NCBI GenBank assembly: GCA_011772205.1
Contig: WVZY01000016.1
Coordinates: forward strand, 21,634-85,633
Length of the DNA stretch: 64,000 nt
Direction: 5' to 3'
Source: Candidatus Latescibacterota bacterium
GTDB lineage: Bacteria; Krumholzibacteriota; Krumholzibacteriia; WVZY01
Under the pieces are notes generated by a model. It searched no databases. It saw nothing but the letters and a program-made list of their open reading frames with translations, and had not been told where the DNA came from. Below, one piece after another: positions 1 to 20,693 of the stretch (its first letter is position 1; the number at the start of each line of letters is the position of its first letter). Position numbers and translations under genes: made by a program.

Positions 1-2183
1 AAACGGTCGACCTTGTCCATGATCCCCATCATCTCGAATGCCGAATTGAAATATGGCTCGGCTCCGCGGCCATCGAATTGATCGACATAGAGAATGTCTC
101 CGCCTCTTGCTGGACCCGCACCGGGAAGAATCTGCATCTCCATTGGGGCTGCGCAAGCCTCATCGATTTCGTCCACCGCACCCGTGAATTGGCTCCACCA
201 TGTTGAAGCCGCGTTGGCATCCGTTGCTCCGAAGAAGAACCACAGGGTGTCTCCACCCGTAAAGAAATGGTCGTTGAGATCGATGCAGAATTTGTCAGGC
301 ACCGGCCCGGTCCGCGGACCACTCGACTCCGTGAACACCGTGTCGAGGCGGAACTGATACCACGTACGTCCCCCGCAGATCACCGAATCGACCACTGGCC
401 AGCGGTAGCTATTCTCCACGATCTTATCGAGCGGCATCGGCTTGCTTTGAGGGTCGCGAGAGAGATAGAAGTACGCTGCCGAGCCAAATCCGCTCAACGG
501 ATCGGGCTCCTGGAGACCAAACGTCGGCTCGCTTACTGTAACGATTGCGGAATCGCCCGGCACATTGAGCCCGTCGCGATACGCCGTAATGTCGGTCGCT
601 GCATCAATGCGACCGGTTCCAACGCTGGTCCCGTCTTCAGGGAAGGTATCGTTGAAGAGATCGATGTCGCTTACACTCCACTGGGGACCCGTTATGCTAA
701 TGCGTCGGAATACGACATTGTCGAATAGCGGTGAGTGCGTGTGACATTCCTCGTACGGGCAATAATAATATTTGCAATAATCCCCACATCCCAGAGCCAG
801 CTGGACATGAGAGGCGTTAGGCGCGATGAGATCGCCGAGAGGCCGGACGCAAGTCCCCCATTCCTTAATGGAACCGTAATAGATATAATTGCGGTCTCGC
901 CATTTTCCAGGGCACGCATTGACCCAAGATCGAATGTGCCACACATAGAAGACCATTTCCGGCAGCTCCAGATCCAGGTATACATCATAGACCAGCTCAT
1001 AGACCGAACCAGCACCTTGAGTGTGGTCAATAAAAGGCGACCAGATCTCGTTAAAGATGTACTGGCCACGTGAGTTCACATAGGGAACGACGATCTGCTC
1101 GGGGTGCCCGCCACATGCATACGTAGCGGTAGATCCCTCGATAAATGCCCACATGCATGAGAGGTTCCATGCACAAGGATCCTCCTGGAGAAGAGTGCTC
1201 CCATGAAACAATCCAGCAAAATCCCCGTATGGCAGCCCTTTAGCGCAGGTCCAGTCACCGTCAGCTGCAGCGATATCTCCAGAAGACTCATCCTCGAAAT
1301 CCTCGAAGTCATAAACAGTGTAGGCTGTTCCAACAGTAATGCTGTCGATAATGACCGCACCATCCGTATCCCACAAGCCATCCTGATCAGACCAGCCGCC
1401 GTCGGACTCGAATTGGAAACGAATCCTGATGGCGCCTCGATGAGTTGAAATAAGTTCAGTGCGCGACTGCTTCGCTCCAACACCGTCGAAAGTCGCGATC
1501 CCGTGCCAATCCCACGGGGCGATCATTTCAACGCTTGATAACGAATCACATGTACTCTTTGTCGCATACTCGAGGTATGTATAGTCTAAGCCAGGCTCAG
1601 AATCCCAAGCGACAAGGTAGCTAATGAAAATCTCTTCGGTGTCTGGAACTTCGATGCACTTAAAACACCAGCTTTGATCCCATTCATTTCCGTAGCCTGG
1701 GAGAGCTGCGTACCTACAAAGGATCGTGTTTGCCGTATCAGGTCGGGCGCCACACCAAAGCGACTGCGAACCTTCGAGAGGAGCAAGGCGGCCGAATGTC
1801 CCACCATTCAGCCCCGCGAAATCGTCTATATGGAAATAACAGCCGGTCTGCGCGGTCAAATCATGCGACGTCCAAACCTCATCTGTGCATTTTCCTGCCC
1901 CTCCGTCAAACGTCCACTGAGCAAGGATAAACGTATCCGCATGAGCGGATGCCCTGAGCCCCTGCTCTTCCAATGGCCGATCCAAGTCTAGGATGCTCGG
2001 CTTTTCAACGCGAAACTTGTAACGTGCTTGATTTTTTTTAAGAGACGCCCTTCGCGCATGCGTCGGTGAGAAAAAGAAGCTGGCCAACAAAACACTGAGA
2101 ACAAAAACCTTTGAGATGTGGAGTAGATGTAGCTTAAATGATGGAGCGATTAAAAAATACCGATGCGGAGATTTCGAGTACAT
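1..2183 (-). CDS. Large secreted/cell-surface hypothetical protein; the C-terminus runs off the left window edge
   Basis: Hand translation of the minus strand from ATG 2183 (AGGAGG about 8 nt upstream) stays open to base 1, at least 727 codons. It starts MYSKSPHRYFLIAPSFKLHLLHISKVFVLSVLLASFFF (hydrophobic signal/anchor), followed by a Cys/Trp/Asp-rich region (...FESDGGWSDQDGLWDTDGAVIIDSI...). It is absent from the ORF track because it has no stop inside the window. The listed ORFs in 29-1991 are short other-frame shadows. Confidence 0.7.
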   Translation of the reverse strand, partial: MYSKSPHRYFLIAPSFKLHLLHISKVFVLSVLLASFFFSPTHARRASLKKNQARYKFRVEKPSILDLDRPLEEQGLRASAHADTFILAQWTFDGGAGKCTDEVWTSHDLTAQTGCYFHIDDFAGLNGGTFGRLAPLEGSQSLWCGARPDTANTILCRYAALPGYGNEWDQSWCFKCIEVPDTEEIFISYLVAWDSEPGLDYTYLEYATKSTCDSLSSVEMIAPWDWHGIATFDGVGAKQSRTELISTHRGAIRIRFQFESDGGWSDQDGLWDTDGAVIIDSITVGTAYTVYDFEDFEDESSGDIAAADGDWTCAKGLPYGDFAGLFHGSTLLQEDPCAWNLSCMWAFIEGSTATYACGGHPEQIVVPYVNSRGQYIFNEIWSPFIDHTQGAGSVYELVYDVYLDLELPEMVFYVWHIRSWVNACPGKWRDRNYIYYGSIKEWGTCVRPLGDLIAPNASHVQLALGCGDYCKYYYCPYEECHTHSPLFDNVVFRRISITGPQWSVSDIDLFNDTFPEDGTSVGTGRIDAATDITAYRDGLNVPGDSAIVTVSEPTFGLQEPDPLSGFGSAAYFYLSRDPQSKPMPLDKIVENSYRWPVVDSVICGGRTWYQFRLDTVFTESSGPRTGPVPDKFCIDLNDHFFTGGDTLWFFFGATDANAASTWWSQFTGAVDEIDEACAAPMEMQILPGAGPARGGDILYVDQFDGRGAEPYFNSAFEMMGIMDKVDR

Positions 2184-2333
2184 AATGACTACCTCCTAAC
2201 GCTCATGCGCTTCCTTTCTGATAAGTGCCGAATCGTTATGCTTGAGCACTGGATTGTGGGATCACGATAGAAGTATATCATATAATTAACGATATCCAAA
2301 GGACAAAGGTCGCCGCCGATCCCCATTCTTCCC

Positions 2334-3224
2334 CTATTCCAGGCACATGTCTATTTTGAGTCCGAGGACTCTGCCATGGCAATCCTCAGCAAGACAGAAC
2401 TTATAAAAGCCTCCTGGCCTGACAACACCCTTCGCTACTTGCATGCCAAGAGCAACACTATTAGAAAATCGATCATCAAATTCTGGATATTCTTCAGTCA
2501 GGATAAACTCCCCAGCGTACTCAAGAAATACAGCTATATGTGAAAAATGTATCCCTCCCGATACACCGCAGTGATAGAGAAGCTCGATCTCTCTCGTCCT
2601 TTTCCCTGTAGGTATCCATATATCTTGCCCAAATTCGAATACAAACTTACCGCCGCGAGATGGAATAAGGTGATAAGCAAAATTACCGTATATGCTCAGT
2701 GTCTTTGGCCAATACTTTTCCCTTTCGTAGAAATTCGTCTTCAAACTGAACTCACTGAAGCTGGTTTGTTCTGAAGCTGTTGGCAGGAATATGCCAGCAG
2801 ATACATTCGCGCCCGTTTCCTCCGTATAAACCCACCGTTTCTGAAGCCCGAGAAAAATATTGCCGATACCGTTCTCTTTATACGTACTTCTAATAGACGC
2901 AAAAGGATATATGGATGGGTCTCGGCGGGCATGATAAACAATTACTGGCAGCGAATAGATGAAATTAATATCTGAACTCACAGGCAAGTTGCAAGATAAA
3001 TCATAAATCCCCGAAAATCTCGAAAGATCATAATTCCGAGGCGAATACTCGTCTCCAAAGTACGGCCTCAGATACCTTAACGTGATTTGAGATTTACTCG
3101 TGGGAATACTCTGCAAAAGAACATTTTGCGCTGATGCAATGTCAACCGACAGTCCTGCACAAAGCAGCAAAGCTGATACTATTGAAGAGCGTTTTCCCAA
3201 GGCCGAATCGGCAAAACATGCCAT
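2334..3224 (-). CDS. Hypothetical secreted protein, possibly an outer-membrane beta-barrel
   Basis: ORF 2334..3281. The preferred start is ATG 3224 (GGAGG upstream), which gives a signal-like N-terminus MACFADSALGKRSSIVSALLLCAGLSVDIASAQ. The sequence has alternating aromatic/hydrophobic strand-like segments and no enzymatic motif. The fold is inferred from composition only. Confidence 0.5.
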   Translation of the reverse strand: MACFADSALGKRSSIVSALLLCAGLSVDIASAQNVLLQSIPTSKSQITLRYLRPYFGDEYSPRNYDLSRFSGIYDLSCNLPVSSDINFIYSLPVIVYHARRDPSIYPFASIRSTYKENGIGNIFLGLQKRWVYTEETGANVSAGIFLPTASEQTSFSEFSLKTNFYEREKYWPKTLSIYGNFAYHLIPSRGGKFVFEFGQDIWIPTGKRTREIELLYHCGVSGGIHFSHIAVFLEYAGEFILTEEYPEFDDRFSNSVALGMQVAKGVVRPGGFYKFCLAEDCHGRVLGLKIDMCLE

Positions 3225-3334
3225 TTGGACCTCCGCTTCTTGAACGCTGAGAACGAGGAGCGTGAATGAGACACGCAGCATCTAAGGTTTTTCAAGCCGG
3301 CCTCCCATTTCACGCCGCTACAGATGATTTACTT

Positions 3335-4702
3335 TTACTTTAGCAAGATCATTTTCCTCGTCAGTGCTTTATGTCCAGCTCTCAAGCGATAAAAATACAC
3401 TCCCGATCCGACTAAAGCCCCCCTGGCGTCAGTGCCGTCCCAGGTAAATTCTCTAACTCCTCTATCAAACCCAAACGCCTCATTGAAAAGAACCTTGATC
3501 AATTTGCCTTCTACATCGTAGATCGATAGATTAGCGAAAGAGTTCTCGGGAACCGTAAAAGATATGGTTGTCGTAGGACTGAATGGATTGGGATAATTCT
3601 GGCACAGTGCAAATCGACTCGATGGAATTGGTTCCTCAATTCCTGTCACCGTGCAACCCACAGGAAATGCCCCTATGAGCTGGCTACATAGGCTGTGATC
3701 AGGAGATGCCGGCGAAATGTCGGCAATCTTGAAGTTATGGTCGTCAGGATTGCAAAAACAGGGATCATCGATTTTATCGGCCGGGCCGAGGGGATCCCCT
3801 TGGATAGCACCATACTCGTTCGACCAAAATAGATTGCAGGCATGCACGCCGGCTGAGTCCATATATGCCAGGCCAAATCCTTCGGAATCGTCGCAAAAAA
3901 TATTTCGCAATATTGTGACAGTGGGGCTCCAGTGTATATTGATCGTTGCACCGTCTGGCGATACATTTGAATAGAACGTATTGTTCCACACATGCCCCGC
4001 CCCGACATAATAGTAGATGCACCCTGAAGTGACTGCGGAATTCTCGTAAAAAAGGTTATTGAACACTTCCATGCGACTCGAACTCGCGCACACGAGCGCT
4101 CCGCCTCCCTCTTGTGCGGAGTTTTCGCAAAACGTGCAATTTGTAATTCTCATCTCCCCATCGAGGAGCACCGCGGCGGCGCCGCCTTTATGATGGGCAT
4201 GGTTTCCTATGAAGGTGCATTTGTCTATTTCCGATCGGGATTCGGGATTGGCCACGACGATCGCTCCGCCATCGTAAGTTGACACGTTGTTTTCGAAGAC
4301 GCAATCGCGCAAGGTAACCCAAGCGCTCGACCCGACTCGCACGGAACCTCCGTTATTTGTGTGGTATCCATCGATAAACGTGAATCCACTTATTTCAGTT
4401 TCCGCGCCGCCCCAGAATACGATATGGCGATGGATGCCATTGCCGTCTATGATCGTATTTTCAGGACCATCGGTTGACACGAACGTCAAAGTGAAATTGA
4501 CTTCGAAATACTCCGGATACTTTCCAGGTCCAACTTCGATGGTATCAAATGGAATTGCCGCAGCAACAGCATCTGTGATGGTGTCGTAGTCTCCTGTGTT
4601 GTCCTTCCGGACGATGATGACGCGAGCGGAGCCCAAAATGGGATGAAATATGAATGGAGAGGATATGACCAGCAAAAGGAACGTAATTGCTTTTGTCCGC
4701 AT
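3335..4702 (-). CDS. Right-handed parallel beta-helix repeat protein with a T9SS-type C-terminal sorting domain
   Basis: ORF 3335..4789. Start ATG 4702 gives the signal peptide MRTKAITFLLLVISSPFIFHPILGSA. It contains repeated beta-helix rungs (GGAIVV, GGAAAV, GGGALV, NxF/NNxF). The C-terminus LCQNYPNPFSPTTTISF...GVYFYRLRAGHKALTRKMILLK is typical of T9SS / FlgD-Ig-like C-terminal domains. Confidence 0.75.
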   Translation of the reverse strand: MRTKAITFLLLVISSPFIFHPILGSARVIIVRKDNTGDYDTITDAVAAAIPFDTIEVGPGKYPEYFEVNFTLTFVSTDGPENTIIDGNGIHRHIVFWGGAETEISGFTFIDGYHTNNGGSVRVGSSAWVTLRDCVFENNVSTYDGGAIVVANPESRSEIDKCTFIGNHAHHKGGAAAVLLDGEMRITNCTFCENSAQEGGGALVCASSSRMEVFNNLFYENSAVTSGCIYYYVGAGHVWNNTFYSNVSPDGATINIHWSPTVTILRNIFCDDSEGFGLAYMDSAGVHACNLFWSNEYGAIQGDPLGPADKIDDPCFCNPDDHNFKIADISPASPDHSLCSQLIGAFPVGCTVTGIEEPIPSSRFALCQNYPNPFSPTTTISFTVPENSFANLSIYDVEGKLIKVLFNEAFGFDRGVREFTWDGTDARGALVGSGVYFYRLRAGHKALTRKMILLK

Positions 4703-4796
4703 GACGATACCCCCCTGATCAATCGGGAGTTGGAGCAAATGTCTCAGCACATGGCGATTGATTATCCGAGGTTTGCCTCTCCCTTGCATATGAGCA

Positions 4797-4931
4797 TTAT
4801 TTCAACAACACAATCTTCCTGCTCTGAGTTTGCCCTCCTGATTCAAGCTTGATGAAATAGACTCCAGAGCTCACCTTATCGCCATTTTGATCCCGCCCAT
4901 CCCATGACACGCGATGCTCGCCTTTTGATTG
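4797..4931 (-). pseudogene. Orphan relic of a T9SS C-terminal sorting domain (distal half only)
   Basis: Hand translation gives QSKGEHRVSWDGRDQNGDKVSSGVYFIKLESGGQTQSRKIVLLK followed by a stop. There is an in-frame TGA directly upstream (4932-4934) and no start codon or cargo domain. Confidence 0.6.
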
Positions 4932-5587
4932 TCAGCGAGGAGCCATCGCAATGCATGCCCCCACCTAAGCTGTTGCTTCCTCTCTTGACTGTTAGGAGTT
5001 GTTTCATAACAACATCACCTCGTGTGAAATAGCGCATCGTTCAAGAGTGATGGATGGGAACCTGATCTGCAAAGCTTACATTCTTAGAAGCACTTCTTCA
5101 TTTGTCGTATAACAATTTCCAGATCCATGAATCGTAGGATCCGGGTAAGATCTTCGTCCTCGAGGAAATGAATCAAAGATGCATTGTGGATTACTGCAGA
5201 ACGCGATGAAGAAATGTTCAAGAAGGATAATTTCGAAGGTGCTGAATTAATTGCGATCCCTCCCCCATCAATAAACCCTTCCCCTCGAGACGCGCCTGGC
5301 TGTTTGGTGTGCAGGGGATTTGGATAAGCGCGCAGATTATACCATAAAATAAACAATAATTGAAGGGCGAAGGGCAACAGTCGATGCACATCGACATTGG
5401 CAGGAGGACACCGTATATGCACACTGATGAAAATTGCGTTTCCCTTTATACACCTTACCCCCTTTATCCACAAAAAGCTGAAAAATAGAAAGATAGCTCA
5501 TTGATCCCTGCATTAAAAATGATCCACTCAAGACGCCACACGCTGGGTATAGCCGTCGATTTTTCTATAAGAACGTACTTTGCCCCT

Positions 5588-7085: not shown

Positions 7086-9422
7086 TCAGTAACGTTTCTG
7101 AAATATTTCGTCCAGCGAGAGCTTCTTGAGGTCCTCCACGAAGGCAACGAGATGTTTGACCATCGCATCCCACATTTTCTTCCCCTTCTCCGCGCTGGCC
7201 CGCGTGGGGTCGCCCATCACACCGCTGTCGGAAATTCTTTTCGTGAAGGCATGCCAGGAGATGGCGCGCTTTGAAGTGAAGTTCAAGTAGTGGCTGGAAA
7301 ACTCCGGCACGAGCTTCTCCGCGAACTCCATGCGAACGAGCTCCGGCCGCGTGGCCAGGCTCGTGCTCGTCTCGATCTCGCCGGCATGGACGTCATTGAA
7401 TGTTTCGGTCATCGACTCGATGTCCACGTCGCTCGTCTCACCCGTATCCACACAAACGAAAATGCGGGCGTCGCGGTTGATCTGCTGAGCGGCAAAGTTT
7501 AGCGCCGGTGTGTTGCCGGCGTGGCCGTTGATGATGACCAGCTTGGTAATGCCGTTTTTCGCCGCGCTCATGCCGATCTCGTACACCATGCTGGCGAGGG
7601 TCTGGTTGCCGATGCTGATCGTTCCGCTGAAATCGTCATGGTGATACGACACGCCGTATGATATCAGCGGAAAGACGATAGGCTTTGGATCGCTGCATGC
7701 TTTGGCCACGCTCGTTGCCAGATATTCCGCGTCGAAGGCGTCCGTATCGAGGGGCAGGTGCGGTCCGTGCTGCTCGATCGAGCCCACGGGCAGCAGTGCG
7801 ACGTCCGTTTCCTTGAATCGCTTTTTCGCTTCGGGCCACGTCATTTCCGCCAGCGAGTGCATGCTGCTGCGAGCGGCACTGCGGCTGGGTGACTTGCGCC
7901 GCCGGTCGCGTCTCTCGAACGGGTACGGGCGGTTGATCGCCGGATCGTTGAGCAAATCGACATCTTCCCACAGCCGTCCCATGCGGCGTACCGCTCCGTC
8001 GGCGTGCTCGAGCAGGATCCGGTAGAGGGGCGCCCGAATGTCGGCTGGAATGCTGTCCGGAGGCGACTTCTCGCCATCGAATCGCAGCTTGAGGATCTCG
8101 CGCCGCTGCTTTGCTGCGTGTTTGCTTTTGCCGCGCAGGCGAACCACTTCTCTTTCCTCGAGCATCCACATGAGCTGCTCGGCGCCGGACCGCTCCTGAT
8201 GAACCCCCTGGGTCACCAGCGCATCCAGGCAAAGGTCGATCTGCTGTTTTGTATAACCGCAGCGGGTCGGATCGCCGCCGTTGGCCAGTACCATACCGAC
8301 GATACGACGGCACTTCTCACATTTCCCGCAGGGGTACGCCCGTTTCCCCACTGTGGTTGCGGCGTGGCAGGACATTTGATGTGCGAACAAATTAGGGTAG
8401 CGCTGCACGAGAACGCGCTCGATCATGAGTTCGGACAGCGGCCGTAGAAGGGAGAACTGACTCAACGGCCAGCTCTTTTTGGCATAGTAGCGGCTGAGTG
8501 CATTGTCGAAGTAGCGGCTCTGGTCGTACAGGCCGTCGTAATGCGTGATCCCGTGGTACGTGGTTCGAGCGCTCGTGTCGTGTTCATCGCCGATAACCAG
8601 ACGCGCCGCGCCTCGTTTACGCACGAGCGGCAGCGCGCCAAAAAGGAATACGGCGACCGTCCACAACCGGATCGGATACTCATCCGAACGCAGCTGCGCA
8701 AAGTCCGGCCTGATGAACGGCAGCCGCCGAAGCATCCAGGCAAACATGCGATCCGAGGTCATCCACACGCGCGTCGTGTTCGCCACGTTCTCGTGGAAAT
8801 GCCGATAAGCATTGAGCGCGGTGAACCAGTGTCTACCGGACTCGTTGCCAAATATCGGGTGCACCTCGTAACCGAGTTCGTTCAACAGTCCATAGCTCAG
8901 CAAGCTGTCTTTGCCACCGCTGGACAGGACGGCGATCTTGTTGCGGTTACTGTTCGATGGTTCCCAGGTAATGCGCTCCCTGCTGGAGAAGCTTTCGAAT
9001 ATGAGTTCGGCGCGCAGGTAGCGGTTTTGCTTGACTATGGGGAGTCTTGCCGCTTCCGCTTTCAAGAACGGATTTGGCTCGAGAAGCTTCTTTACATAGA
9101 TTTCGCGCGCTGTGTTCTCCGCCATGTCACGCAGAAAGCGGCGGTCAACGGCGTCGAACGTCCCGTGAAAGACGATCCTGCCGCAGAAAAGACCGTAATT
9201 GAGCGCCACCTGAGCAGCGATCATATTGGCGAGGTTCACATCGGCGGGATCCTGTGGGTCGAACACCTCTTCGGCATATCGGAACATCAGCTCGGAGGTG
9301 TGGCGGGTACCTTTTTGAACAACGGCGTGCGGAGCAACCAGACGGCGTTTTTCCACCTTCACGGGTCCAACATGCAGCTCGTCGATGACGTTCAGGATCC
9401 GGAGCGGGTCGGCCTGTTTCAT
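7086..9422 (-). CDS. Fusion protein: N-terminal PP-loop (SGGKDS) ATP-pyrophosphatase-like domain with a Cys cluster, plus a C-terminal creatininase-family amidohydrolase domain
   Basis: ORF 7086..9605. The preferred start ATG 9422 overlaps the upstream stop (ATGA). The N-terminal part contains AVLSSGGKDSLLSYGLL (PP-loop) and CHAATTVGKRAYPCGKCEKC. The C-terminal ~240 aa contains LPVGSIEQHGPHLPLDTD, INGHAGN and HAGEIETS, which are creatininase-family signatures. Confidence 0.75.
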   Translation of the reverse strand: MKQADPLRILNVIDELHVGPVKVEKRRLVAPHAVVQKGTRHTSELMFRYAEEVFDPQDPADVNLANMIAAQVALNYGLFCGRIVFHGTFDAVDRRFLRDMAENTAREIYVKKLLEPNPFLKAEAARLPIVKQNRYLRAELIFESFSSRERITWEPSNSNRNKIAVLSSGGKDSLLSYGLLNELGYEVHPIFGNESGRHWFTALNAYRHFHENVANTTRVWMTSDRMFAWMLRRLPFIRPDFAQLRSDEYPIRLWTVAVFLFGALPLVRKRGAARLVIGDEHDTSARTTYHGITHYDGLYDQSRYFDNALSRYYAKKSWPLSQFSLLRPLSELMIERVLVQRYPNLFAHQMSCHAATTVGKRAYPCGKCEKCRRIVGMVLANGGDPTRCGYTKQQIDLCLDALVTQGVHQERSGAEQLMWMLEEREVVRLRGKSKHAAKQRREILKLRFDGEKSPPDSIPADIRAPLYRILLEHADGAVRRMGRLWEDVDLLNDPAINRPYPFERRDRRRKSPSRSAARSSMHSLAEMTWPEAKKRFKETDVALLPVGSIEQHGPHLPLDTDAFDAEYLATSVAKACSDPKPIVFPLISYGVSYHHDDFSGTISIGNQTLASMVYEIGMSAAKNGITKLVIINGHAGNTPALNFAAQQINRDARIFVCVDTGETSDVDIESMTETFNDVHAGEIETSTSLATRPELVRMEFAEKLVPEFSSHYLNFTSKRAISWHAFTKRISDSGVMGDPTRASAEKGKKMWDAMVKHLVAFVEDLKKLSLDEIFQKRY

Positions 9423-10558
9423 CGAAACGTGATCCACGCCAACTTCTCCCGTAAGAGACCTCGTTTTCTCTTGATTGCGGAACGGGCAGTGGCCACCCGC
9501 TTTTTCGCGAGGGGAGCTAGAGCTGCGATGACTTTCATGGGTCCATCTACCAGAACGTCGACGGTGGGCAGTCCGATGCGCCGTTCGATGGTGGCACACA
9601 CCCACGGCAGCTGGTGTTTTGGAATCCCTTCATGATTGATCGTCACCGCCACTACCTTTGTATCCGATATCAACTCCAGCGCTTGAATTTGCTTGCGCAT
9701 TGGGTGGATGGGATGGCCTGGAAATCCATCGTAATCCTTGCGGGCTGGCGCATGCTGCAGAACGATCGCGTCCGGGCGGGCCGCCGCGAGGATCTCGAAG
9801 CCCCCTGGGTAAGCGGGATTCATGAGGCTCCCCTGTCCCTCGATGACGATGACATCGGGTCTCCTTTCGACCCAAGCGAGGTAGACCGCATGCTCGATCT
9901 CACCGGCGACGAAATCGTTCACCAGCGAGTCCATGATGACGCCGTAACGCACCCCCTGCATCCACGCTGTTTGTCCGGTCCCGATCATTTCACACGTGAA
10001 TCCCGCTTGGCGAAAACCCTCCACCAGCTTCCATGCGGTGGTTCGCTTGCCGACAGCCGAATCGGTGCCCAGGACTGCGATCTTGAACGCGTTGACCTTC
10101 GCAATGTCGCCGGTGAAGAAATGCAGCTCAGACTTGGGCGGCGGCTTGCGCACATCGGTGAGGATCACGCCTTTTTTCGCGGCCAAGGCGCTCATCTCGG
10201 AATCTTCCGAGAGGAAGTCATGGAGACCGGAGTCCACGTTCAGACCCATGGTGATGGCCCGCTTTATATCTCTCCGGACCGCCGGGTCCATGCGGCCGCC
10301 ATCGGGGGCAAGACCGACGACCATGTGGCTGGCAGGGCGGCCTCGCATGTGCGATGCGTTTGCAGCCTCTTGCAGCGAGCCGAAGATAGGAATGTCATAG
10401 CTCTTACCGTCCAGAACCAGACCGGCCTCCTGTCCGCGATAGCGGCTGTCAATAACGCCTACCACGTTGTAACGTGCTGTAAAACGCACGAGGCCATGCG
10501 CCGTCTTTCCGTTGGGCGTATTGAAAGCTCCTTCACAGTAAACGATGGCATTGGGCAT
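9419..10558 (-). CDS. DUF1611-family protein (DgcN-like)
   Basis: ORF 9419..10828. The conserved region starts at MPNAIVYCEGAFNTPNGKTAHGLVR (ATG 10558). It contains a P-loop-like GTDSAVGKRTT motif and EGQGSL. The upstream 90 in-frame codons are low-complexity, so the true start could be as far up as 10828. Confidence 0.72.
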   Translation of the reverse strand: MPNAIVYCEGAFNTPNGKTAHGLVRFTARYNVVGVIDSRYRGQEAGLVLDGKSYDIPIFGSLQEAANASHMRGRPASHMVVGLAPDGGRMDPAVRRDIKRAITMGLNVDSGLHDFLSEDSEMSALAAKKGVILTDVRKPPPKSELHFFTGDIAKVNAFKIAVLGTDSAVGKRTTAWKLVEGFRQAGFTCEMIGTGQTAWMQGVRYGVIMDSLVNDFVAGEIEHAVYLAWVERRPDVIVIEGQGSLMNPAYPGGFEILAAARPDAIVLQHAPARKDYDGFPGHPIHPMRKQIQALELISDTKVVAVTINHEGIPKHQLPWVCATIERRIGLPTVDVLVDGPMKVIAALAPLAKKRVATARSAIKRKRGLLREKLAWITFR

Positions 10559-11341
10559 CGACTTTCCAATCGCCTGCTCGCGAGCGGGACGAGTACCTGA
10601 TTCATGATAAAGGTTCCTTGTAGCGCCACTCGAGCTGGAGGCTTCCGCCTGCTCTTCGAGGGGACGCAGGAAATCCCCGGTTGCTTCCATCGAGGGAGAT
10701 GCAGTGACTTGAAAGGATTCTTGGTCTGCGGTGGCTTCGTTCGGTCCAGGGTCGGACAGCGCACCGCCGCTGTCCTCAGCTGCTCCTTTTTCCATTCGTC
10801 TCACTTTCTTCCGGCCCTCTGCGCCCAACCGTTTGCATGCGATGGTCGGTAAACGACCACTTTTGAAGGGCTCATGGGCAGTGTCGATGGTGCGCCTATG
10901 GAGTCGTCGGCTGGCGAAGCTCCATTCGTTCAGCGCTGAGCCGAATCCCGATCGAGCAGCAGAGCACTGGTGATGTGATCGAGGGTCCGTTCAGCGCATT
11001 CGCTCCGCTGACTCGCGTGAGCAAACTGCAAAATTCGTACCGCAGCCCAGCCAACTTTGACTTCGATCGCCCAGGGCTCAACTGACGGTACTCAACCGCG
11101 AACGCTCACTCCCTCGCGACTTGACTCCGGTGGGCGAACTGCCAATTGCCGAAGAAACGATTGAGCCGCTATGTCATCTCCTCCAGCTAGCGGAACGGCT
11201 CCTGAAGAGTGAGTGTCATTTCGCATGACCTGCCTGATTATTGAAACCCTGCGAGGTCGGCCGCCCTCCGATCCTCGCCCGGTTTATATGGCCCATCTTG
11301 GGGCGGAGGCCTTTCAAGTGAACGGCTGCTAGCGCCGTTCA

Positions 11342-12979
<1,638 letters not shown>

Positions 12980-15059: not shown

Positions 15060-16664
15060 TTACTGAAACTCAAACGCACCAATATCAATGATGCCGACAA
15101 GGGGGCGCACCTCAGCCGTTCCCACCGGGATGAGCACGGCCTCCGGCGGATGATAGCCCGGCGTTAGAAGCGGATTCGGAAACGGTGAACCGTCTGGACT
15201 GGTCGTCGTCAGTGTTCCCGCGTCGATCACGGGGGAGCCGGTCGCCGGCCTGAGCAGGTTGCCCGCCATATCTACCAACCCTGGATCCGACCCGGTAAGG
15301 GTTCCCGTCCATTCCGGAGGGAATCCAGCACCCGTGTGAACCCAGTTGTTGCTCCCGCTCACCCGCCTGCCGAATACCCAATTGGCTTCGGAATCATCGA
15401 GCACATAATAAGAGGTGATGTAGAAGATATTGTTGTGCATTTCCACACTCTCGACGCCGAAATGCGGAAAGATGTGAGATCTGGGATTGCTGCTGTAATG
15501 AATGAACGTGTTGTTCATGAAGCGATAGCGCCCATTGCTCTGCCCGGTGCCATCGCCGCCAATACGCACATTGCGGCTGTAGCGCCTGGCAATCAACACA
15601 TTGCCGACCACGTCGCTGTCTTCCCGTGCCGTCTCCTCTGCGACTCCCCCGGCAGGATCCGGCCCGAGGAGCTCCAGGTTGTGGTAATAAGGCGCCTCCA
15701 GCCAGTTGTAGTAGATCTCGTTTCGCTCGGCCCGGCTCTTGACGTTGTTCCCGCCATTGCTGTCATGGATGTAACAGTACTGCAGACGAAATACGGATCC
15801 AGGGTAGTCGTCCTCGTTGGTTGCGATGTATAGCTGATGACGGCCGGTCCCTTCGCCGCAGCTGTAGACCTCGCAATACTCCACAGTGAGGCTGCCCGAG
15901 CCCTGGTCTGCGCCGAGGATGCCATGCGGGCAATCGTGGACGATGCAGTCGCGTATCGTGATGTCGTTTGCATGATGGTACAGCCCGCGAAATCCTGCAT
16001 TGCGAATCTCGAAGCTCTCGAACACGTAGTGGTTCATGTTGAACTCCACGACGTCGGTGCCACCATCGATGACCGGGCGATTGCCGCTGACCTTGACCCC
16101 CCGGATGGTGATGGGCTGTGCAGCAGATCCTGCCCTGCTGAAAATGACACCACCCGAATAGGTATTGCCCCCATCTACCAATACGAGATCCCCGGGTATG
16201 AGCAGCCCCACCACTTGTTGAATACTGGTATACGCTCTATTGGGACCAACCAGATAGACGTTCCCAGCGGAGGTCGTGGCCGTCGCTTGACCGGACCTTT
16301 CGCTTTCGTTGCCGGCGGCATCAAAGGCGCTCACTCGGTAACTGTAGCTGGTCCCCGCACTGAGACCGGTGTCGGCATAGGTGGTCACAGCCGTGACACC
16401 AACGGCTGCGTCGTTACGATACACCCGGTAACCATCAACGCCGACATTGTCCGTACTCGGGGACCACGAGACATCGATTCGTGTATTGGAAAAGGTATTC
16501 GCAGCGACGTTCTGGGGCACACTCGGTGCCAGCGTGTCGGGCCCGTTCGACACGAGCGGGGGACCATCACCGCCCTTCTCATCACAGCCAAAAAGGAGCA
16601 GCATTGCAAGCGCCGGTGGAGCAAAGCTAAGAACCAAGGATCTCTGTAGCGACTTTTGGAACAT
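15060..16664 (-). CDS. Lipoprotein with an FN3 domain and a parallel beta-helix (pectate-lyase-fold) domain
   Basis: The N-terminus MFQKSLQRSLVLSFAPPALAMLLLFGCDEKGG has a lipobox-like LFGC. The FN3 region reads PSVPQNVAANTFSNTRIDVSWSPSTDNVGVDGYRVYRNDAAV...YRVSAFDAAGNES. Beta-helix rungs follow, ending DIGAFEFQ. Confidence 0.7.
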   Translation of the reverse strand: MFQKSLQRSLVLSFAPPALAMLLLFGCDEKGGDGPPLVSNGPDTLAPSVPQNVAANTFSNTRIDVSWSPSTDNVGVDGYRVYRNDAAVGVTAVTTYADTGLSAGTSYSYRVSAFDAAGNESERSGQATATTSAGNVYLVGPNRAYTSIQQVVGLLIPGDLVLVDGGNTYSGGVIFSRAGSAAQPITIRGVKVSGNRPVIDGGTDVVEFNMNHYVFESFEIRNAGFRGLYHHANDITIRDCIVHDCPHGILGADQGSGSLTVEYCEVYSCGEGTGRHQLYIATNEDDYPGSVFRLQYCYIHDSNGGNNVKSRAERNEIYYNWLEAPYYHNLELLGPDPAGGVAEETAREDSDVVGNVLIARRYSRNVRIGGDGTGQSNGRYRFMNNTFIHYSSNPRSHIFPHFGVESVEMHNNIFYITSYYVLDDSEANWVFGRRVSGSNNWVHTGAGFPPEWTGTLTGSDPGLVDMAGNLLRPATGSPVIDAGTLTTTSPDGSPFPNPLLTPGYHPPEAVLIPVGTAEVRPLVGIIDIGAFEFQ

Positions 16665-16905: not shown

Positions 16906-18129
16906 GTGAAAAAGATACTTTCCGTATTTTCAACAATATTGATCATCCTCCTCATCTTCCCTTTTCCTGCCGACTCGTACGAACTGACCGGCCGGATTTC
17001 GAGCGACCTTTACGCCTATCAGGGATCCAACGATGATCACATTCGTCCGTACCTTCGGTTTAGGGCGAATATGCTGGCGTGGAGGGCGGAGGACGGCCGA
17101 TCGCTCCGCTTCCATACGTCGCTGCGCTGGACATCGGATTTCGCCGATAAGCTAACGTCCGATCCCGAACTGTTTGTCTATGACGCCTACGCTCACCTGT
17201 CGGGATTGCCGACCTGGACCGATGTGTATGTCGGGCGCCAGTTCGTGTATACAGGGGTTGGCAGTGCTCTCATGGACGGTGGACGGCTCCATTTTCGCCG
17301 TGCCAAAAATTTGAGTCTCAATGTCTTCGGCGGGAGTTCGGTATCGAGCGAAGATCCAGATAAGGTGCGCTCGCTGGACGATGATCTCGTGCTCGGCGGT
17401 CACTTCATTGCGCGACCGGACAGGGCCACTAAATTGGGTCTCAGTTGGATGTTGAGACGGCGCGACGGCGACCAGAGTTTTCATCGCGTGGGGATCGATG
17501 TCGACCGGTTGTTTGGCCCGGCTGAGATTTACGGACGGGTGTCGTATAACGCCGCCGATCTCCGCCTGGCCGAAATACTGACTCGGGCGGTCTACCGGCC
17601 GGGGGCGTGGTATGTATCCGGCGAATACGGATGGCGGGAGCCGTTTGTGGCGAGCAACTCGATCTTCGCGCTGATCGATTTCAAAGAATACCGGATCGGC
17701 CGGGTCGAAGCGCGCCGCCGCGTGTGGCGGCAGCTATCCGTCCTGGCCAACGTGCAGGCCGACCTGTCGAGCGACGAAGATGCGTGGCGGACCGGAATCG
17801 GTGTCAGCACGCCGCTGGTTTCGGTCTCATGGATTCACCAGACAGGATATGCGGGAGACAATGACGGCGTGAGCGGTCATGTCAACGTCAGGTTGAATGA
17901 CCGGCTGGACTGTTACGCATCCGCCAACCTGTTCCGCTATCGTGTCCAGCAGGAGCAGGTGGAGCGTTCCGATGCGTATGCATCAACGGCGGGGCTTCGC
18001 TGGCGGCCCGGCTGGGGAGTGACGATCGTGACGGAGGGCCAGTATCTCCGAAACGCGGTTCTAAAAGACGATAGCAGGTTCCTTCTTCGGATCTCGAAAG
18101 ACTTCTCGATAAGTTCGAAAAACGGGTGA
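16906..18129 (+). CDS. Putative outer-membrane beta-barrel (porin-like) protein
   Basis: GTG start. Signal peptide MKKILSVFSTILIILLIFPFPADS. Many amphipathic strand-like segments with aromatic girdles (YVGRQFVYTG, LSWMLRRRDG, WYVSGEYGWREP, LRWRPGWGVTIVTEGQY). Its stop overlaps the next gene's start (GTGA). Confidence 0.5.
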   Translation: MKKILSVFSTILIILLIFPFPADSYELTGRISSDLYAYQGSNDDHIRPYLRFRANMLAWRAEDGRSLRFHTSLRWTSDFADKLTSDPELFVYDAYAHLSGLPTWTDVYVGRQFVYTGVGSALMDGGRLHFRRAKNLSLNVFGGSSVSSEDPDKVRSLDDDLVLGGHFIARPDRATKLGLSWMLRRRDGDQSFHRVGIDVDRLFGPAEIYGRVSYNAADLRLAEILTRAVYRPGAWYVSGEYGWREPFVASNSIFALIDFKEYRIGRVEARRRVWRQLSVLANVQADLSSDEDAWRTGIGVSTPLVSVSWIHQTGYAGDNDGVSGHVNVRLNDRLDCYASANLFRYRVQQEQVERSDAYASTAGLRWRPGWGVTIVTEGQYLRNAVLKDDSRFLLRISKDFSISSKNG

Positions 18130-19193
18130 AAGGACAGATGATGCGGGCGGCAGCCGTCATTTCCATGATAACGATACTGATCTCCGGAACGATCCTCGCG
18201 AGCAGATACCCTGGTGTCGAGCTGCACGTACCGGAAAGCGATATAATTTTCGCGCACGCCGACCATACCGATCTGGGTTGCACCGATTGCCATGCCGATA
18301 TCGAGGAGAGCGCTGACGCACAGGATCGGAATTTCCCGTCAATGGATGTTTGCGGGGACTGCCACGACATCGAAGCCGATGAGGACTGCGGGTCGTGTCA
18401 CCGAGATCCCGACGATCCGCAGGCGTCTCCGCACCCGGAGCGAATGATCATTTTCAGCCATAAGAATCATCTTGCCCGCAATATAGATTGCGCCACCTGC
18501 CACGCCACCATCGCTACCAGCTCGGAACCATCGCACGAGCACATGCCGACCATGCGCCAGTGCTTCGCGTGTCATGACGGGGTGAAGGCAGACGACGGCT
18601 GTGCGTTATGCCACGGTGACCATCTCACGTTAGCAGATATTCATCCGGCAGAGTGGCGGCATCAGCACGGGGATCGGGCGGCTCTCGAGCGGGAATGGTG
18701 CACGCAGTGCCACCGGCGGGAGAATTCATGTCTCGAGTGTCATCGCGGCGATAATCTAACGGGCAGCATACATGATCTCAATTATATTTATACGCACGGT
18801 TTGGACGCAAAAAACAAGCGCTTCGACTGCGCCAAATGCCATGACAACCGTTCCTTCTGCTACGCATGCCACGAGCGGGAAAACCGCATCCCGCTCCTGC
18901 ACTCGTCGGTTGCGTGGCTCACCGATCACGGCCGCACGGCCCGGCGGGATGTGGAGAGCTGCGCATCGTGCCACGATTCCGCCGATCCGACGTGCGCCCG
19001 GAGCGGATGCCACCGCGACGCCGATGGTTTGAGGGGTACCGATCCGCGCTTTCATGCATCGAACCTGACTTTATTCGACTCGAAGGGGCCGTGGCACAGG
19101 GATGACGGCTATTACTGCTACCGCTGTCATACGAATACGCGAAGATCCGGACAAGGATTTTGCGGCTACTGCCACGGGTACGAAGAGGACTAG
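18126..19193 (+). CDS. Multihaem cytochrome c (13 CxxCH plus one CxxxxCH)
   Basis: I counted 13 CxxCH motifs by eye (CTDCH, CGDCH, CGSCH, CATCH, CFACH, CALCH, CTQCH, CLECH, CAKCH, CYACH, CASCH, CYRCH, CGYCH) plus CARSGCH. The N-terminal hydrophobic segment is AAAVISMITILISGTILA. The start could be GTG 18126 or ATG 18138/18141. Confidence 0.85.
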   Translation: MKGQMMRAAAVISMITILISGTILASRYPGVELHVPESDIIFAHADHTDLGCTDCHADIEESADAQDRNFPSMDVCGDCHDIEADEDCGSCHRDPDDPQASPHPERMIIFSHKNHLARNIDCATCHATIATSSEPSHEHMPTMRQCFACHDGVKADDGCALCHGDHLTLADIHPAEWRHQHGDRAALEREWCTQCHRRENSCLECHRGDNLTGSIHDLNYIYTHGLDAKNKRFDCAKCHDNRSFCYACHERENRIPLLHSSVAWLTDHGRTARRDVESCASCHDSADPTCARSGCHRDADGLRGTDPRFHASNLTLFDSKGPWHRDDGYYCYRCHTNTRRSGQGFCGYCHGYEED

Positions 19194-19199
19194 GAGGCT

Positions 19200-20693
19200 A
19201 TGATTCGTCCGCGATACAGACAACACATCACGCAGCTTTGGCTCATGGCCTGTGCATTGATTGCCGCAACACTCACGCACGGCTGCAGCACGGAGAGAAA
19301 TCCAACGACGCTTCCAGGAGCCCACCCCGAGAGCTGGATGGATGAGGAATCGCCGGATTTCCACGGCCGTTTCGTTTCCCTGGACGGTACGGTAAGCTGT
19401 GCGCACTGTCACGGTATCGATGAGCCAGGCGGCCGGGTGGGCGTCGCTTGTGTGGATTGTCATGGTCCTGGTTCGAGCAACTGTATCGCCTGCCACGGCG
19501 GCCTGGACAACATCACCGGCGCCCCGCCATACGGGCTTCGCGGAGAAACATCGGATACGACGCTGGCCGTCGGTGCGCACACCACCCACCTCGACGCGTC
19601 ATCCATAGCCGCCCCGTTGTCATGCAACGCTTGCCACATTGTTCCCCTCTTTTTGTTCAGTCCCACCCATCTCGACCTATCACCGCCGGGCGGGCAACCT
19701 CTCGACTCCATTGCGGAAATAACGTGGCACGGGATTGCCGACGGTGGCAATGCTGTCTGGAACCGGTCCTCACGGACCTGCGCGGGGACTTACTGCCACG
19801 GCAGCTTTACTGGTGGCAATGCCAACAATGCTCCTATTTGGACCGGCACCGGTCAGGCCACCTGCGGCTCCTGCCACGATGTGGGGAGCGATCCAGCTCA
19901 GCTACAATGGAAACACGAGTACCATATCGAGACGGCCGGACTGCTGTGTGCTGACTGCCACGCATCTGTAATAGATACAGAGCATAATATCATTGACCTC
20001 ACGTTACACGTGAACGGCCGGGCAGATACCCTGAGACGAGACCCTTCCATCTGCGATGTCTGTCATGGGTCAGGCCCCGAGGTATGCGTGGGCTGCCACG
20101 GAGGCGTCGACAATCTGACCGGCGCGCCACCGCTGGGCCTCCGGGGAGAGACTTCGGCGGACCAGCTGGCGGTGGGTGCGCATACCCTCCATATGGAAGG
20201 CGGCACGCTGGCCGATGCGTTTGCCTGCTCGGATTGCCACAAGGTTCCTTCGAGTTTGATCGACGACGGTCATCTTGGTTTGGATTCGATTGCCGAGATG
20301 ACTTTCAGTCCGCTGGCGGGACCGTCGGCGTCCTGGACCCGCTCCACGGCGACTTGCAGCAGTATCTACTGCCATGGGAGCTTTGCGGGCGGCAACATGT
20401 CCAACAGCCCCGTGTGGACGGGATTCGATCAGGCGGATTGCGGCTCGTGTCACGATGTGGGCAGCAATCCCAACTCACTTAGCGGCCAGCATCGCGACCA
20501 TATACAAGAGGAGAACCTGGACTGCATTGAGTGCCACGTCTCGGTGGTGAGCCGACAATTGAGCATCATTGATAAGAAGCTGCACGTCGACGGATTGAAA
20601 ACGGTTGCTTTCTTGAAAGGCGGGACGTATCAGAGTGGCTCGTGCTCGGGCCTGAACAGCACGAGCTGCCACGGGACGGAAGATTGGTGGTAG
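19200..20693 (+). CDS. Multihaem cytochrome c lipoprotein with CxxxxCH...CxxCH repeat modules (11 CxxCH plus 2 CxxxxCH)
   Basis: AGGAGG lies upstream. The N-terminus ...LWLMACALIAATLTHGCSTE is lipoprotein-like. The motifs CAGTYCHGSFTGGN...CGSCHDVG and CSSIYCHGSFAGGN...CGSCHDVG resemble the Geobacter CxxxxCH...CxxCH domain family. The two halves are clearly homologous. Confidence 0.85.
   Translation: MIRPRYRQHITQLWLMACALIAATLTHGCSTERNPTTLPGAHPESWMDEESPDFHGRFVSLDGTVSCAHCHGIDEPGGRVGVACVDCHGPGSSNCIACHGGLDNITGAPPYGLRGETSDTTLAVGAHTTHLDASSIAAPLSCNACHIVPLFLFSPTHLDLSPPGGQPLDSIAEITWHGIADGGNAVWNRSSRTCAGTYCHGSFTGGNANNAPIWTGTGQATCGSCHDVGSDPAQLQWKHEYHIETAGLLCADCHASVIDTEHNIIDLTLHVNGRADTLRRDPSICDVCHGSGPEVCVGCHGGVDNLTGAPPLGLRGETSADQLAVGAHTLHMEGGTLADAFACSDCHKVPSSLIDDGHLGLDSIAEMTFSPLAGPSASWTRSTATCSSIYCHGSFAGGNMSNSPVWTGFDQADCGSCHDVGSNPNSLSGQHRDHIQEENLDCIECHVSVVSRQLSIIDKKLHVDGLKTVAFLKGGTYQSGSCSGLNSTSCHGTEDWW

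Follow-up and report, generated by a model that had tools for sequence, protein, structure and literature searches.

In PP-loop enzymes a carboxyl or keto oxygen of the substrate is AMPylated, after which a nitrogen or sulfur nucleophile attacks. Amidotransferases such as the GMP, NAD and asparagine synthetases are classically built from an amide hydrolase and a PP-loop adenylating domain, and QueC amidates a carboxylate with ammonia. QatC and QueC share a C...CxxCxxC zinc site that has been described as structural (PMC13376578). MurL, which has been described as having "no known domains", is a peptide epimerase that requires ATP, converts it to AMP and works in one direction only, and the carboxylate at the C-terminal end of an L-Ala-L-Glu moiety has been proposed as the group that it activates. 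The DgcN-DgcA system combines a DUF1611 N-acetyltransferase with an enolase-superfamily N-acetyl-D-Glu racemase, and dgcN is described as the central gene in its irreversible racemisation pathway. The gene considered here lies on the minus strand of a 64,000-nucleotide stretch of DNA from Candidatus Latescibacterota bacterium (contig WVZY01000016.1 of assembly GCA_011772205.1, positions 21,634 to 85,633), which we call the window. Its product joins a QueC-like PP-loop half, a flexible tether and a creatininase-family half, and the gene belongs to a conserved operon; that this is a genuine two-domain enzyme we regard as close to certain. The best overall explanation is a genuine bifunctional enzyme that works in an ATP-driven pathway of dipeptides or acyl-amino acids containing a D-residue, a reading to which we assign a probability of roughly one half.

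Translation from the ATG at 9422 gives the 778-aa product that an earlier note on this DNA had reported, and with it every motif quoted there: the PP-loop motif SGGKDS (Table 1), EQHGPH at residue 550, INGHAGN at residue 631, HAGEIETS at residue 679, the cysteine motif CHAATT...CGKCEKC at residues 352-371 and a linker whose RRDRRRK segment begins at residue 504. The minus-strand reading frame is open from a GTG at 9605 through to the stop codon at 7086-7088. The ATG at 9422 shares bases with the TGA of the upstream DUF1611 gene in an ATGA overlap (9419-9422), a typical sign of translational coupling, which is thereby suggested for this pair of genes. In alignments the homologues begin ~12 aa upstream of this ATG, so that the start is fixed only to within a few codons.

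When 5.8 billion proteins were searched, more than 120 matched the fusion as full-length homologues (~780-800 aa, identity 62-73%); they come from Latescibacterota, Eisenbacteria, Gemmatimonadota, Chitinivibrionia, Thermoguttaceae and Desulfobacteraceae. In a scan of one genome per species, relatives were present in at least 582 species genomes, and the fused architecture was seen in all 80 of the best 80 loci; it was also recovered from Ignavibacteria, Calditrichia, Acidobacteriota, Planctomycetota and Desulfobacterota. Cultured carriers are Desulfosarcina variabilis (NZ_CP159846) and delta proteobacterium strain NaphS2, and the reading frame runs continuously through complete or cultured genomes, namely CP070677, CP070758 and that of D. 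variabilis. Identity across phyla is ~60% for the N-terminal half (N-half) and 71-83% for the C-terminal half (C-half), which argues that both halves are strongly constrained. The earlier note had called the fusion unusual and had been unable to assign it to a known enzyme. On the second point we agree, as no characterised enzyme matches the protein; the first holds in that sense and not in the sense of rarity, given the number of species in which a relative is found.

With a low-complexity linker, and with one genome in which the two halves are encoded as separate genes, it is fair to consider that the fusion might have been created from two separate genes by a chimeric assembly or a frameshift. 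Against this stand a continuous frame of ~780-800 aa, shared by more than 120 protein clusters and by the best loci, from independent assemblies and from complete and cultured genomes, and a GC content (0.58-0.61) that stays even over the junction between the halves. These observations rule out an artefact for practical purposes, and we give the idea next to no credence. In the exceptional genome, Calditrichaceae MAG_33 (locus L040, JABWBP010000001), the linker position is taken up by a stop codon, then ~415 nt of spacer and a fresh ATG, leaving the halves as two genes. The spacer (L040:8519-8934) holds short direct repeats (GTCATT...GCTTCGCGTCATT) and may be an inserted element. A tblastn search of plasmids with the N-half gave no match.

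The N-half had been recognised as a PP-loop enzyme from its signature, and both the conservation of that signature and the predicted structure agree. The motif SGGK[DE]S shows little or no variation among close, distant and archaeal homologues, and its S, G, G, K and S positions are at least 90% conserved in distant stand-alone homologues. In an AlphaFold2 (AF2) model of the N-half built from 73 sequences, with a predicted local distance difference test score (pLDDT) of 91 and a predicted template modelling score (pTM) of 0.91, the motif follows the first beta-strand (residues 159-167). Three further motifs of the core are invariant in the family: NESGRHW (residues 193-199), GDExD (278-282) and DQS (300-302). 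Foldseek returns QatC, QueC, Cap9, MnmA, YcfA and TtuA as PDB neighbours of this model, with E values of 9e-6 to 8e-4 and a probability of 1.0, among them QatC 9y02_B (E 9.2e-6), QueC 2pg3 (E 1.3e-5) and Cap9 9nto_B (E 9.9e-5). The model superposes on QueC with TM-scores of 0.67 (2pg3) to 0.73 (3bl5), values that are normalised to QueC and that come from a predicted, not a solved, structure of the N-half. These fold matches, together with SGGK[DE]S and the invariant cysteines discussed below, lead us to regard the N-half as a QueC-like PP-loop ATP pyrophosphatase; by analogy with such enzymes it would be expected to convert ATP to AMP and pyrophosphate (PPi), with an AMPylated substrate.

A domain scan with hidden Markov models, proposed at the outset, is informative for one of them: the creatininase domain is matched at 244 bits, whereas no Pfam or NCBIfam model reaches its threshold over the ~500 residues of the N-half. 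Pfam QueC (PF06508) gives a sub-threshold match of 14.7 bits (cut-off 22) that aligns residues 345-372 with profile positions 176-200, in the zinc region, and a match of any kind is obtained in only 3 of 17 diverse family members. Alignment of the N-half to E. coli QueC with hhalign covers only 48 columns, around the PP-loop; on these two results a true QueC was rejected. A PDB sequence search with the N-half found nothing significant, the only match being to the PP-loop of MJ0690 (3k32) at E 1.3. The N-terminal accessory subdomain matches no known family. It is kept family-wide, the archaeal stand-alone proteins included, and N75, Y76, G77, D93, N103, T104 and E107 are among its invariant residues. 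As for the CxxCxxC cluster to which the earlier note drew attention, it is present and extends to four invariant cysteines, which from their arrangement most likely form a structural Zn(Cys)4 site like that of QueC and QatC. A redox Fe-S role for the motif was considered and set aside, since the zinc site of those proteins fits better.

By sequence, MurL is the nearest characterised relative of the N-half and the sole curated family that is touched recurrently, if weakly. The NCBIfam model NF041275, from which the link comes in its entirety, aligns its positions 228-334 with residues 271-374 of the fusion (E 4.8e-7) and is matched by 9 of the 17 diverse members. At 28.6 bits for the fusion, and 26-29 bits for the family, against a cut-off of 700 bits, the score lies so far under the equivalog threshold that the fusion is not a MurL. 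Neither the window nor the loci annotated with Pfam have a Mur ligase gene adjoining the fusion, and none occurs among the recurrent neighbour clusters. For MurL itself, the recurrent weak link offers a possible fold assignment, namely a PP-loop adenylation frame.

The C-half carries the complete creatininase-family domain that had been described: the Pfam Creatininase match (cut-off 31.3 bits, E 1.8e-72) spans profile positions 1-238 of 238. Residues E550, H552, D561, H634, H679 and E682, predicted metal and catalytic residues in an ExH...D...H...HxxE pattern, are invariant in 71 sequences and align with solved creatininase structures; their roles as ligands we presume from the structure of P. 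putida creatininase. Matches in the PDB include 3no4 (E 1.7e-19) and 1j2t (~1e-12) by sequence, and Foldseek comparison with creatininases gives target-normalised TM-scores of 0.78-0.84. All of the NCBIfam equivalog cut-offs are missed; the nearest family is MftE (160.8 bits, cut-off 172), followed by creatininase (117.3, cut-off 235), IolN (86.2, cut-off 245) and ArfB (33.4, cut-off 180). Judged by these matches, the C-half is an intact creatininase-family hydrolase and not any characterised member of that family. The Arg/Ser-rich linker between the halves is real, as had been stated, with a sequence that is not conserved in homologues and is predicted to be disordered. Because of this disorder, and because the full-length AF2 model has a pTM of 0.66 as against 0.91 for the N-half alone, no fixed interface between the halves is predicted.

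Gene context was compared by clustering the open reading frames of 84 loci, many of which lie on truncated contigs. The consensus order is a ThrC-like pyridoxal phosphate (PLP) enzyme (PALP), a DUF1611 protein, the fusion and a dipeptide epimerase (EPI), with 66 loci containing DUF1611, 63 PALP and 59 EPI; the recurrent neighbour clusters are this same PALP/DUF1611/MR_MLE set. The bacterial PLP enzyme scores 432-441 bits, above cut-off, with the NCBIfam model PRK06381 "threonine synthase". The DUF1611 protein of the window has PDB matches 2g0t, 7xrj and 2obn, and the DUF1611 proteins of the operon reach 152-175 bits (152.4 for the window copy) with NCBIfam DgcN, for which the cut-off is 480.

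The epimerase gives some indication of what the operon might act on. Its best PDB matches are dipeptide epimerases, namely 3jva (E 8.8e-71), 3rit (E 6.4e-67), which we take to have been solved with L-Arg-D-Lys, and YkfB 1jpm (E 2.3e-62); with NCBIfam DgcA it reaches 160.6 bits (cut-off 400). All 51 operon copies examined, and the window copy, have (in YkfB numbering) the acid/base catalysts K160 and K162 of the K-x-K motif and the second lysine K268, the metal ligands D191, E219 and D244, and D321-x-D323, the ammonium-binding D-x-D motif of the enzyme. The residues at the specificity positions are acidic: E24 (in 47 of 51 copies), D51 and D298, with E24, D51 and N298 in the archaeal epimerases. 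Positions 24, 51 and 296 of 3RIT have been named as specificity determinants (SFLD paper, PMC3965090). The acidic pocket formed by E24, D51 and D298 suggests a cationic dipeptide substrate.

The operon of the window consists of the DUF1611 gene, the fusion and the epimerase gene, without a PLP gene. A Latescibacterota chromosome (L003) shares synteny with the window, in the order MarR, GroES-GroEL and then the operon (GroEL 81% identical), and it carries HSP20 and a ThrC-like PLP gene at the position that matches window 10559-11341; the window has neither. A search of the 64-kb window found no PALP remnant or second copy, which leaves this genome with an operon of three genes.

An exhaustive search with the N-half (E <1e-3) gave 469 clusters at 50% identity, which comprise creatininase fusions, stand-alone proteins of 460-523 aa and one fusion of DUF1611 with the N-half (P0152). 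The stand-alone proteins are mostly archaeal (Thermoplasmata, Desulfurococcales), and all are named "hypothetical protein". In five archaeal loci a PALP gene of the bacterial family (PRK06381, 433 bits) is followed by DUF1611 and then by an unfused N-half, together with a small GNAT acetyltransferase gene; neither a creatininase nor any other amidase-like donor lies next to the N-half in these five. Two archaeal loci add a divergent unit of a GNAT gene, a conserved 450-aa protein and an epimerase. The 450-aa protein has no NCBIfam and no PDB match, and one of its two copies gives a weak Pfam match to M14 carboxypeptidases (23 bits), a hint that another enzyme may carry out the hydrolysis step in archaea. 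The DUF1611 fusion, the split in L040 and the unfused archaeal form argue for a single pathway in which the parts work together and need no covalent join.

The search also reached divergent paralogues. The creatininase fusions P0184 and P0186, very divergent at 30-33% identity, and the stand-alone proteins P0161, P0205, P0211 and P0238 have lost SGGK[DE]S, NESGxHW and GDExD and have kept the Cys4 motif; from these losses, the PP-loop-less paralogues are probably pseudo-enzymes. A long acidic low-complexity insert lies within the Cys motif of P0205 and P0211.

These observations can be assembled into a candidate pathway. The N-half would use ATP to AMPylate a small substrate derived from an amino acid at its carboxylate (or carbonyl) oxygen, with release of PPi, and a nitrogen nucleophile would then resolve the adenylate to give an amide or peptide bond. 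The adjacent epimerase would invert the C-terminal residue of a dipeptide with a free N-terminus, probably a cationic one, and the creatininase domain would hydrolyse an amide within the same pathway. The net effect would be the ATP-driven production or consumption of a dipeptide or acyl-amino acid with a D-residue, by a logic that recalls MurD2/MurL and the "irreversible racemisation" of DgcN-DgcA, and the halves would be fused for stoichiometry or proximity and not as an obligate channelling machine. This particular division of labour, with activation and ligation by the N-half, epimerisation of a cationic dipeptide and amide hydrolysis by the creatininase domain, we offer as tentative.

A number of points weigh against the pathway. 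Each of its chemical steps is drawn from family membership and gene context, it leaves the role of the ThrC-like PLP enzyme unexplained, and the MurL similarity from which it borrows is weak and limited to ~100 residues. The window operon itself lacks PALP. In five Desulfobacterales loci (L025, L058, L059, L063 and L078) PALP and the fusion occur with DUF1611 and the epimerase not adjacent; a YitT-like gene joins this variant operon in L058, L063 and L078, and one metagenome-assembled genome (D0606S02metaG_Bin_280) has two loci of the variant. Two loci hold the fusion without any operon partner. From the partnerless loci and those with PALP, fusion and YitT, the operon is modular, and the fusion does not strictly need an adjoining epimerase. 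Archaea manage without the creatininase domain, so that the hydrolase step may be peripheral, and P0184 and P0186 retain the creatininase fusion without a PP-loop, which argues that the N-half can serve a non-ATP role too.

It is worth weighing this pathway against other ways of putting the two halves to work. One is an amidotransferase-type coupling, in which the creatininase domain would free ammonia or an amine to attack the PP-loop adenylate, making the fusion the founder of a new amidotransferase class with a creatininase-fold donor. PP-loop enzymes typically use a nitrogen nucleophile as their second substrate, as QueC does; the fusion is strongly conserved with both active sites intact; and pathways of the DgcN type reportedly deal with acidic D-amino acids "and their amides". 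However, we know of no member of the creatininase family, among creatininase, MftE, ArfB and IolN, that releases ammonia, and with a disordered, variable linker and the modest full-length pTM, neither an interface nor a tunnel is predicted. Since, moreover, the halves are naturally split by the spacer in L040, and the archaeal loci have no amidase-like donor beside the N-half, a coupling of this kind appears unlikely to us. Another possibility borrows the chemistry of MurL, with the N-half inverting or cyclising a dipeptide or acyl-amino acid by way of the adenylate (through an oxazolone, diketopiperazine or lactam) and the creatininase domain opening the ring or breaking the intermediate. The recurrent MurL match, the ATP-requiring, AMP-forming and unidirectional reaction of that enzyme, and the fact that creatininase proper, on whose fold the C-half superposes with a TM-score of ~0.8, interconverts a cyclic amide and its open form are all in keeping with such a scheme. 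Yet a competent enolase-type dipeptide epimerase is almost always encoded beside the fusion, which would leave no need for another one; the MurL score falls far short of its cut-off, archaea do without the creatininase, and no evidence of a cyclic intermediate was found, so that we judge the scheme improbable.

That the fusion might instead be a component of an anti-phage system like those of QatC and Cap9, or a QueC paralogue acting on 7-deazaguanines, is an idea that arises naturally from its structural neighbours, of which QatC, QueC and Cap9 are the top ones, and from some Joint Genome Institute (JGI) names, which add "7-cyano-7-deazaguanine synthase". Neighbouring genes tell otherwise. 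PADLOC gave no defence-system match for any operon protein, and a defence system was rejected on this result and on the metabolic context. No que or tgt genes (queD, queE, queF, tgt) occur in three bacterial and five archaeal loci annotated with Pfam, where the neighbours are PALP, DUF1611 and MR_MLE, and neither Qat nor CBASS (cyclic-oligonucleotide-based antiphage signalling system) genes are among the neighbours of the loci examined. Given also that the Pfam QueC match is sub-threshold, that hhalign covers the PP-loop only and that the protein is twice the size of QueC with conserved motifs of its own, we consider this idea very improbable. A bifunctional enzyme in an ATP-driven pathway of D-residue-containing dipeptides or acyl-amino acids is the explanation that we prefer to all of these.

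Table 1. Features of the fusion gene, its neighbours in the window and an associated archaeal protein. Coordinates are those of the window unless a locus is given.
Feature	Coordinates	Strand	Details
Whole fusion gene	7086..9422	-	778 aa + stop; PP-loop half (QueC-like) joined by linker to creatininase-family half
N-terminal accessory subdomain, aa 1-150	8973..9422	-	beta-hairpins and two long helices; AF2 pLDDT mostly >90
QueC-like PP-loop ATP-pyrophosphatase core, aa ~159-400	8223..8948	-	Foldseek matches and invariant motifs
PP-loop motif SGGKDS, aa 168-173	8904..8921	-	invariant in 73- and 71-sequence alignments
Cys4 motif C352-x12-C365-x2-C368-x2-C371	8310..8369	-	cysteines invariant; probable structural Zn site
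C-terminal helical and beta subdomain of N-half, aa 401-500	7923..8222	-	AF2 model; conserved in stand-alone archaeal homologues
Disordered Arg/Ser-rich linker, aa ~501-523	7854..7922	-	pLDDT <50 at aa 504-519; no consensus in alignments
Creatininase-family binuclear-metal amidohydrolase domain (predicted), aa 525-762	7137..7850	-	Pfam PF02633
DUF1611 (DgcN-like) protein, 379 aa, ATG 10558	9419..10558	-	Pfam DUF1611_N + DUF1611; adjoins fusion in ~66/80 loci
Enolase-superfamily dipeptide epimerase, 353 aa	6010..7071	-	Pfam MR_MLE_N + MR_MLE_C; starts 15 nt past fusion stop
Gap of ~780 nt without convincing gene	10559-11341		between GroEL (11342-12955) and DUF1611
Conserved archaeal protein, 450 aa	L084:9230-10582, L088:8987-10339		between GNAT and epimerase

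Around the operon, several other genes recur. Neighbours that recur in bacteria are GroEL, HSP20, sigma-54 response regulators and a Ddl-like ATP-grasp + M20 hydrolase fusion. The last of these is a protein of ~718 aa that combines a D-Ala-D-Ala-ligase-like ATP-grasp part with an M20-type hydrolase (PRK07338) and so constitutes a second ligase-hydrolase fusion near the operon; it was seen in ~7 loci (L002:9868-12024, where it lies beside a gamma-glutamyltranspeptidase gene, L003, L025, L030, L035, L038 and L071). YitT-like DUF5698/DUF2179 membrane proteins recur by the operon in bacteria and archaea (L084:2986-3591, L088:4139-4741), and the YitT-like clusters c5 and c8 stand directly after the epimerase in ~20 bacterial loci. 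MscS channels and CorA likewise recur near the operon in several loci of both bacteria and archaea, and these membrane neighbours together may point to a link with transport or osmotic stress. Rfam returned no riboswitch or other element upstream of the operon in the window and nine other loci.

Elsewhere in the window, the region 1500-5500 has a GC content of 0.43-0.50, lower than that of the operon region (~0.59). It contains a beta-helix protein (3335-4789) that carries a sorting tail of the Por secretion system (T9SS), and an open reading frame of 315 aa (2334-3281) without a Pfam match. On the other side of the operon are a second beta-helix protein, with fn3 (15060-16664), and two adjacent multihaem cytochrome c genes (18126-20693; Cytochrome_C7, with a Geobacter CxxxxCH...CxxCH motif).

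In public databases the homologues of the fusion go by "creatininase family protein" or "hypothetical protein", or at JGI by creatinine amidohydrolase-like names, and this naming hides an ATP-dependent half of 500 aa that has no Pfam or NCBIfam model. The family is large, strongly conserved over phyla and encoded alongside a dipeptide epimerase and a DgcN-like partner in one operon, which makes it a testable candidate for a missing piece of D-amino-acid or dipeptide metabolism in uncultured sediment bacteria and archaea. Experiments are feasible, since the cultured host Desulfosarcina variabilis carries the operon. One can imagine a broader picture, which we hold with more doubt than belief, in which the N-half founds a PP-loop family that no existing model describes and to which MurL is a distant cousin; the operon would then encode an undescribed ATP-driven pathway of cationic dipeptides or acyl-amino acids with a D-residue, spread over at least 580 bacterial and archaeal species mostly of sediment and anoxic settings, and bacteria would have recruited the creatininase domain as a dipeptidase or deacylase of a new kind.

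It is informative, finally, to set the fusion and its operon beside the systems that they most resemble. A literature search found no paper that describes either. Both folds are known; the creatininase fold in this pairing, the enlarged QueC-like family and the operon are not described in the literature found, and no Pfam or NCBIfam model captures the family or the operon. There is as yet no sign of unprecedented chemistry. With QueC, QatC and Cap9 the N-half shares an SGGxDS PP-loop, a Rossmann-like core and a C...CxxCxxC zinc site downstream of that core. It differs from QueC in having ~500 aa in place of ~230, the excess including an N-terminal subdomain of 150 aa and a C-terminal one of 100 aa, and from all three in its motifs NESGRHW, GDExD and DQS, in its fusion to a creatininase and in a context of neither queuosine nor defence genes. 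The C-half resembles the creatininase family in its full-length domain, its invariant metal and catalytic residues and the fold of P. putida creatininase, whereas known members are stand-alone proteins of ~230-260 aa and the fusion has no mycofactocin, riboflavin or inositol genes near it.

MurL and the N-half are of similar size (447 aa for MurL); the ATP-dependent, AMP-forming reaction of MurL at the carboxylate end of a dipeptide moiety is what the N-half would also be expected to resemble. In contrast, MurL partners MurD2 in peptidoglycan synthesis and is unfused to a hydrolase, and the operon of the fusion is without mur genes. The operon resembles DgcN-DgcA, a comparison that also covers the NSAR-type pathways of "irreversible D-to-L conversion", in that a DUF1611 protein occurs together with an enolase-superfamily racemase or epimerase of the MLE subgroup and with an amide hydrolase. 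Its partners nonetheless miss the DgcN and DgcA cut-offs (152.4 of 480 and 160.6 of 400 bits), its epimerase has the D-x-D motif and is closest to dipeptide epimerases, and its ThrC-like and QueC-like components have no counterpart there. The PP-loop amidotransferases GMP synthetase, NAD synthetase and asparagine synthetase B offer the nearest parallel in architecture, with an ATP pyrophosphatase and an amide-hydrolysing domain on one polypeptide. Their hydrolase, however, belongs to the glutaminases (class I or II) or is nitrilase-like, and a tunnel couples it to the synthetase, whereas in the fusion, for which no interface is predicted, the hydrolase is of the creatininase fold and hangs on a disordered tether.

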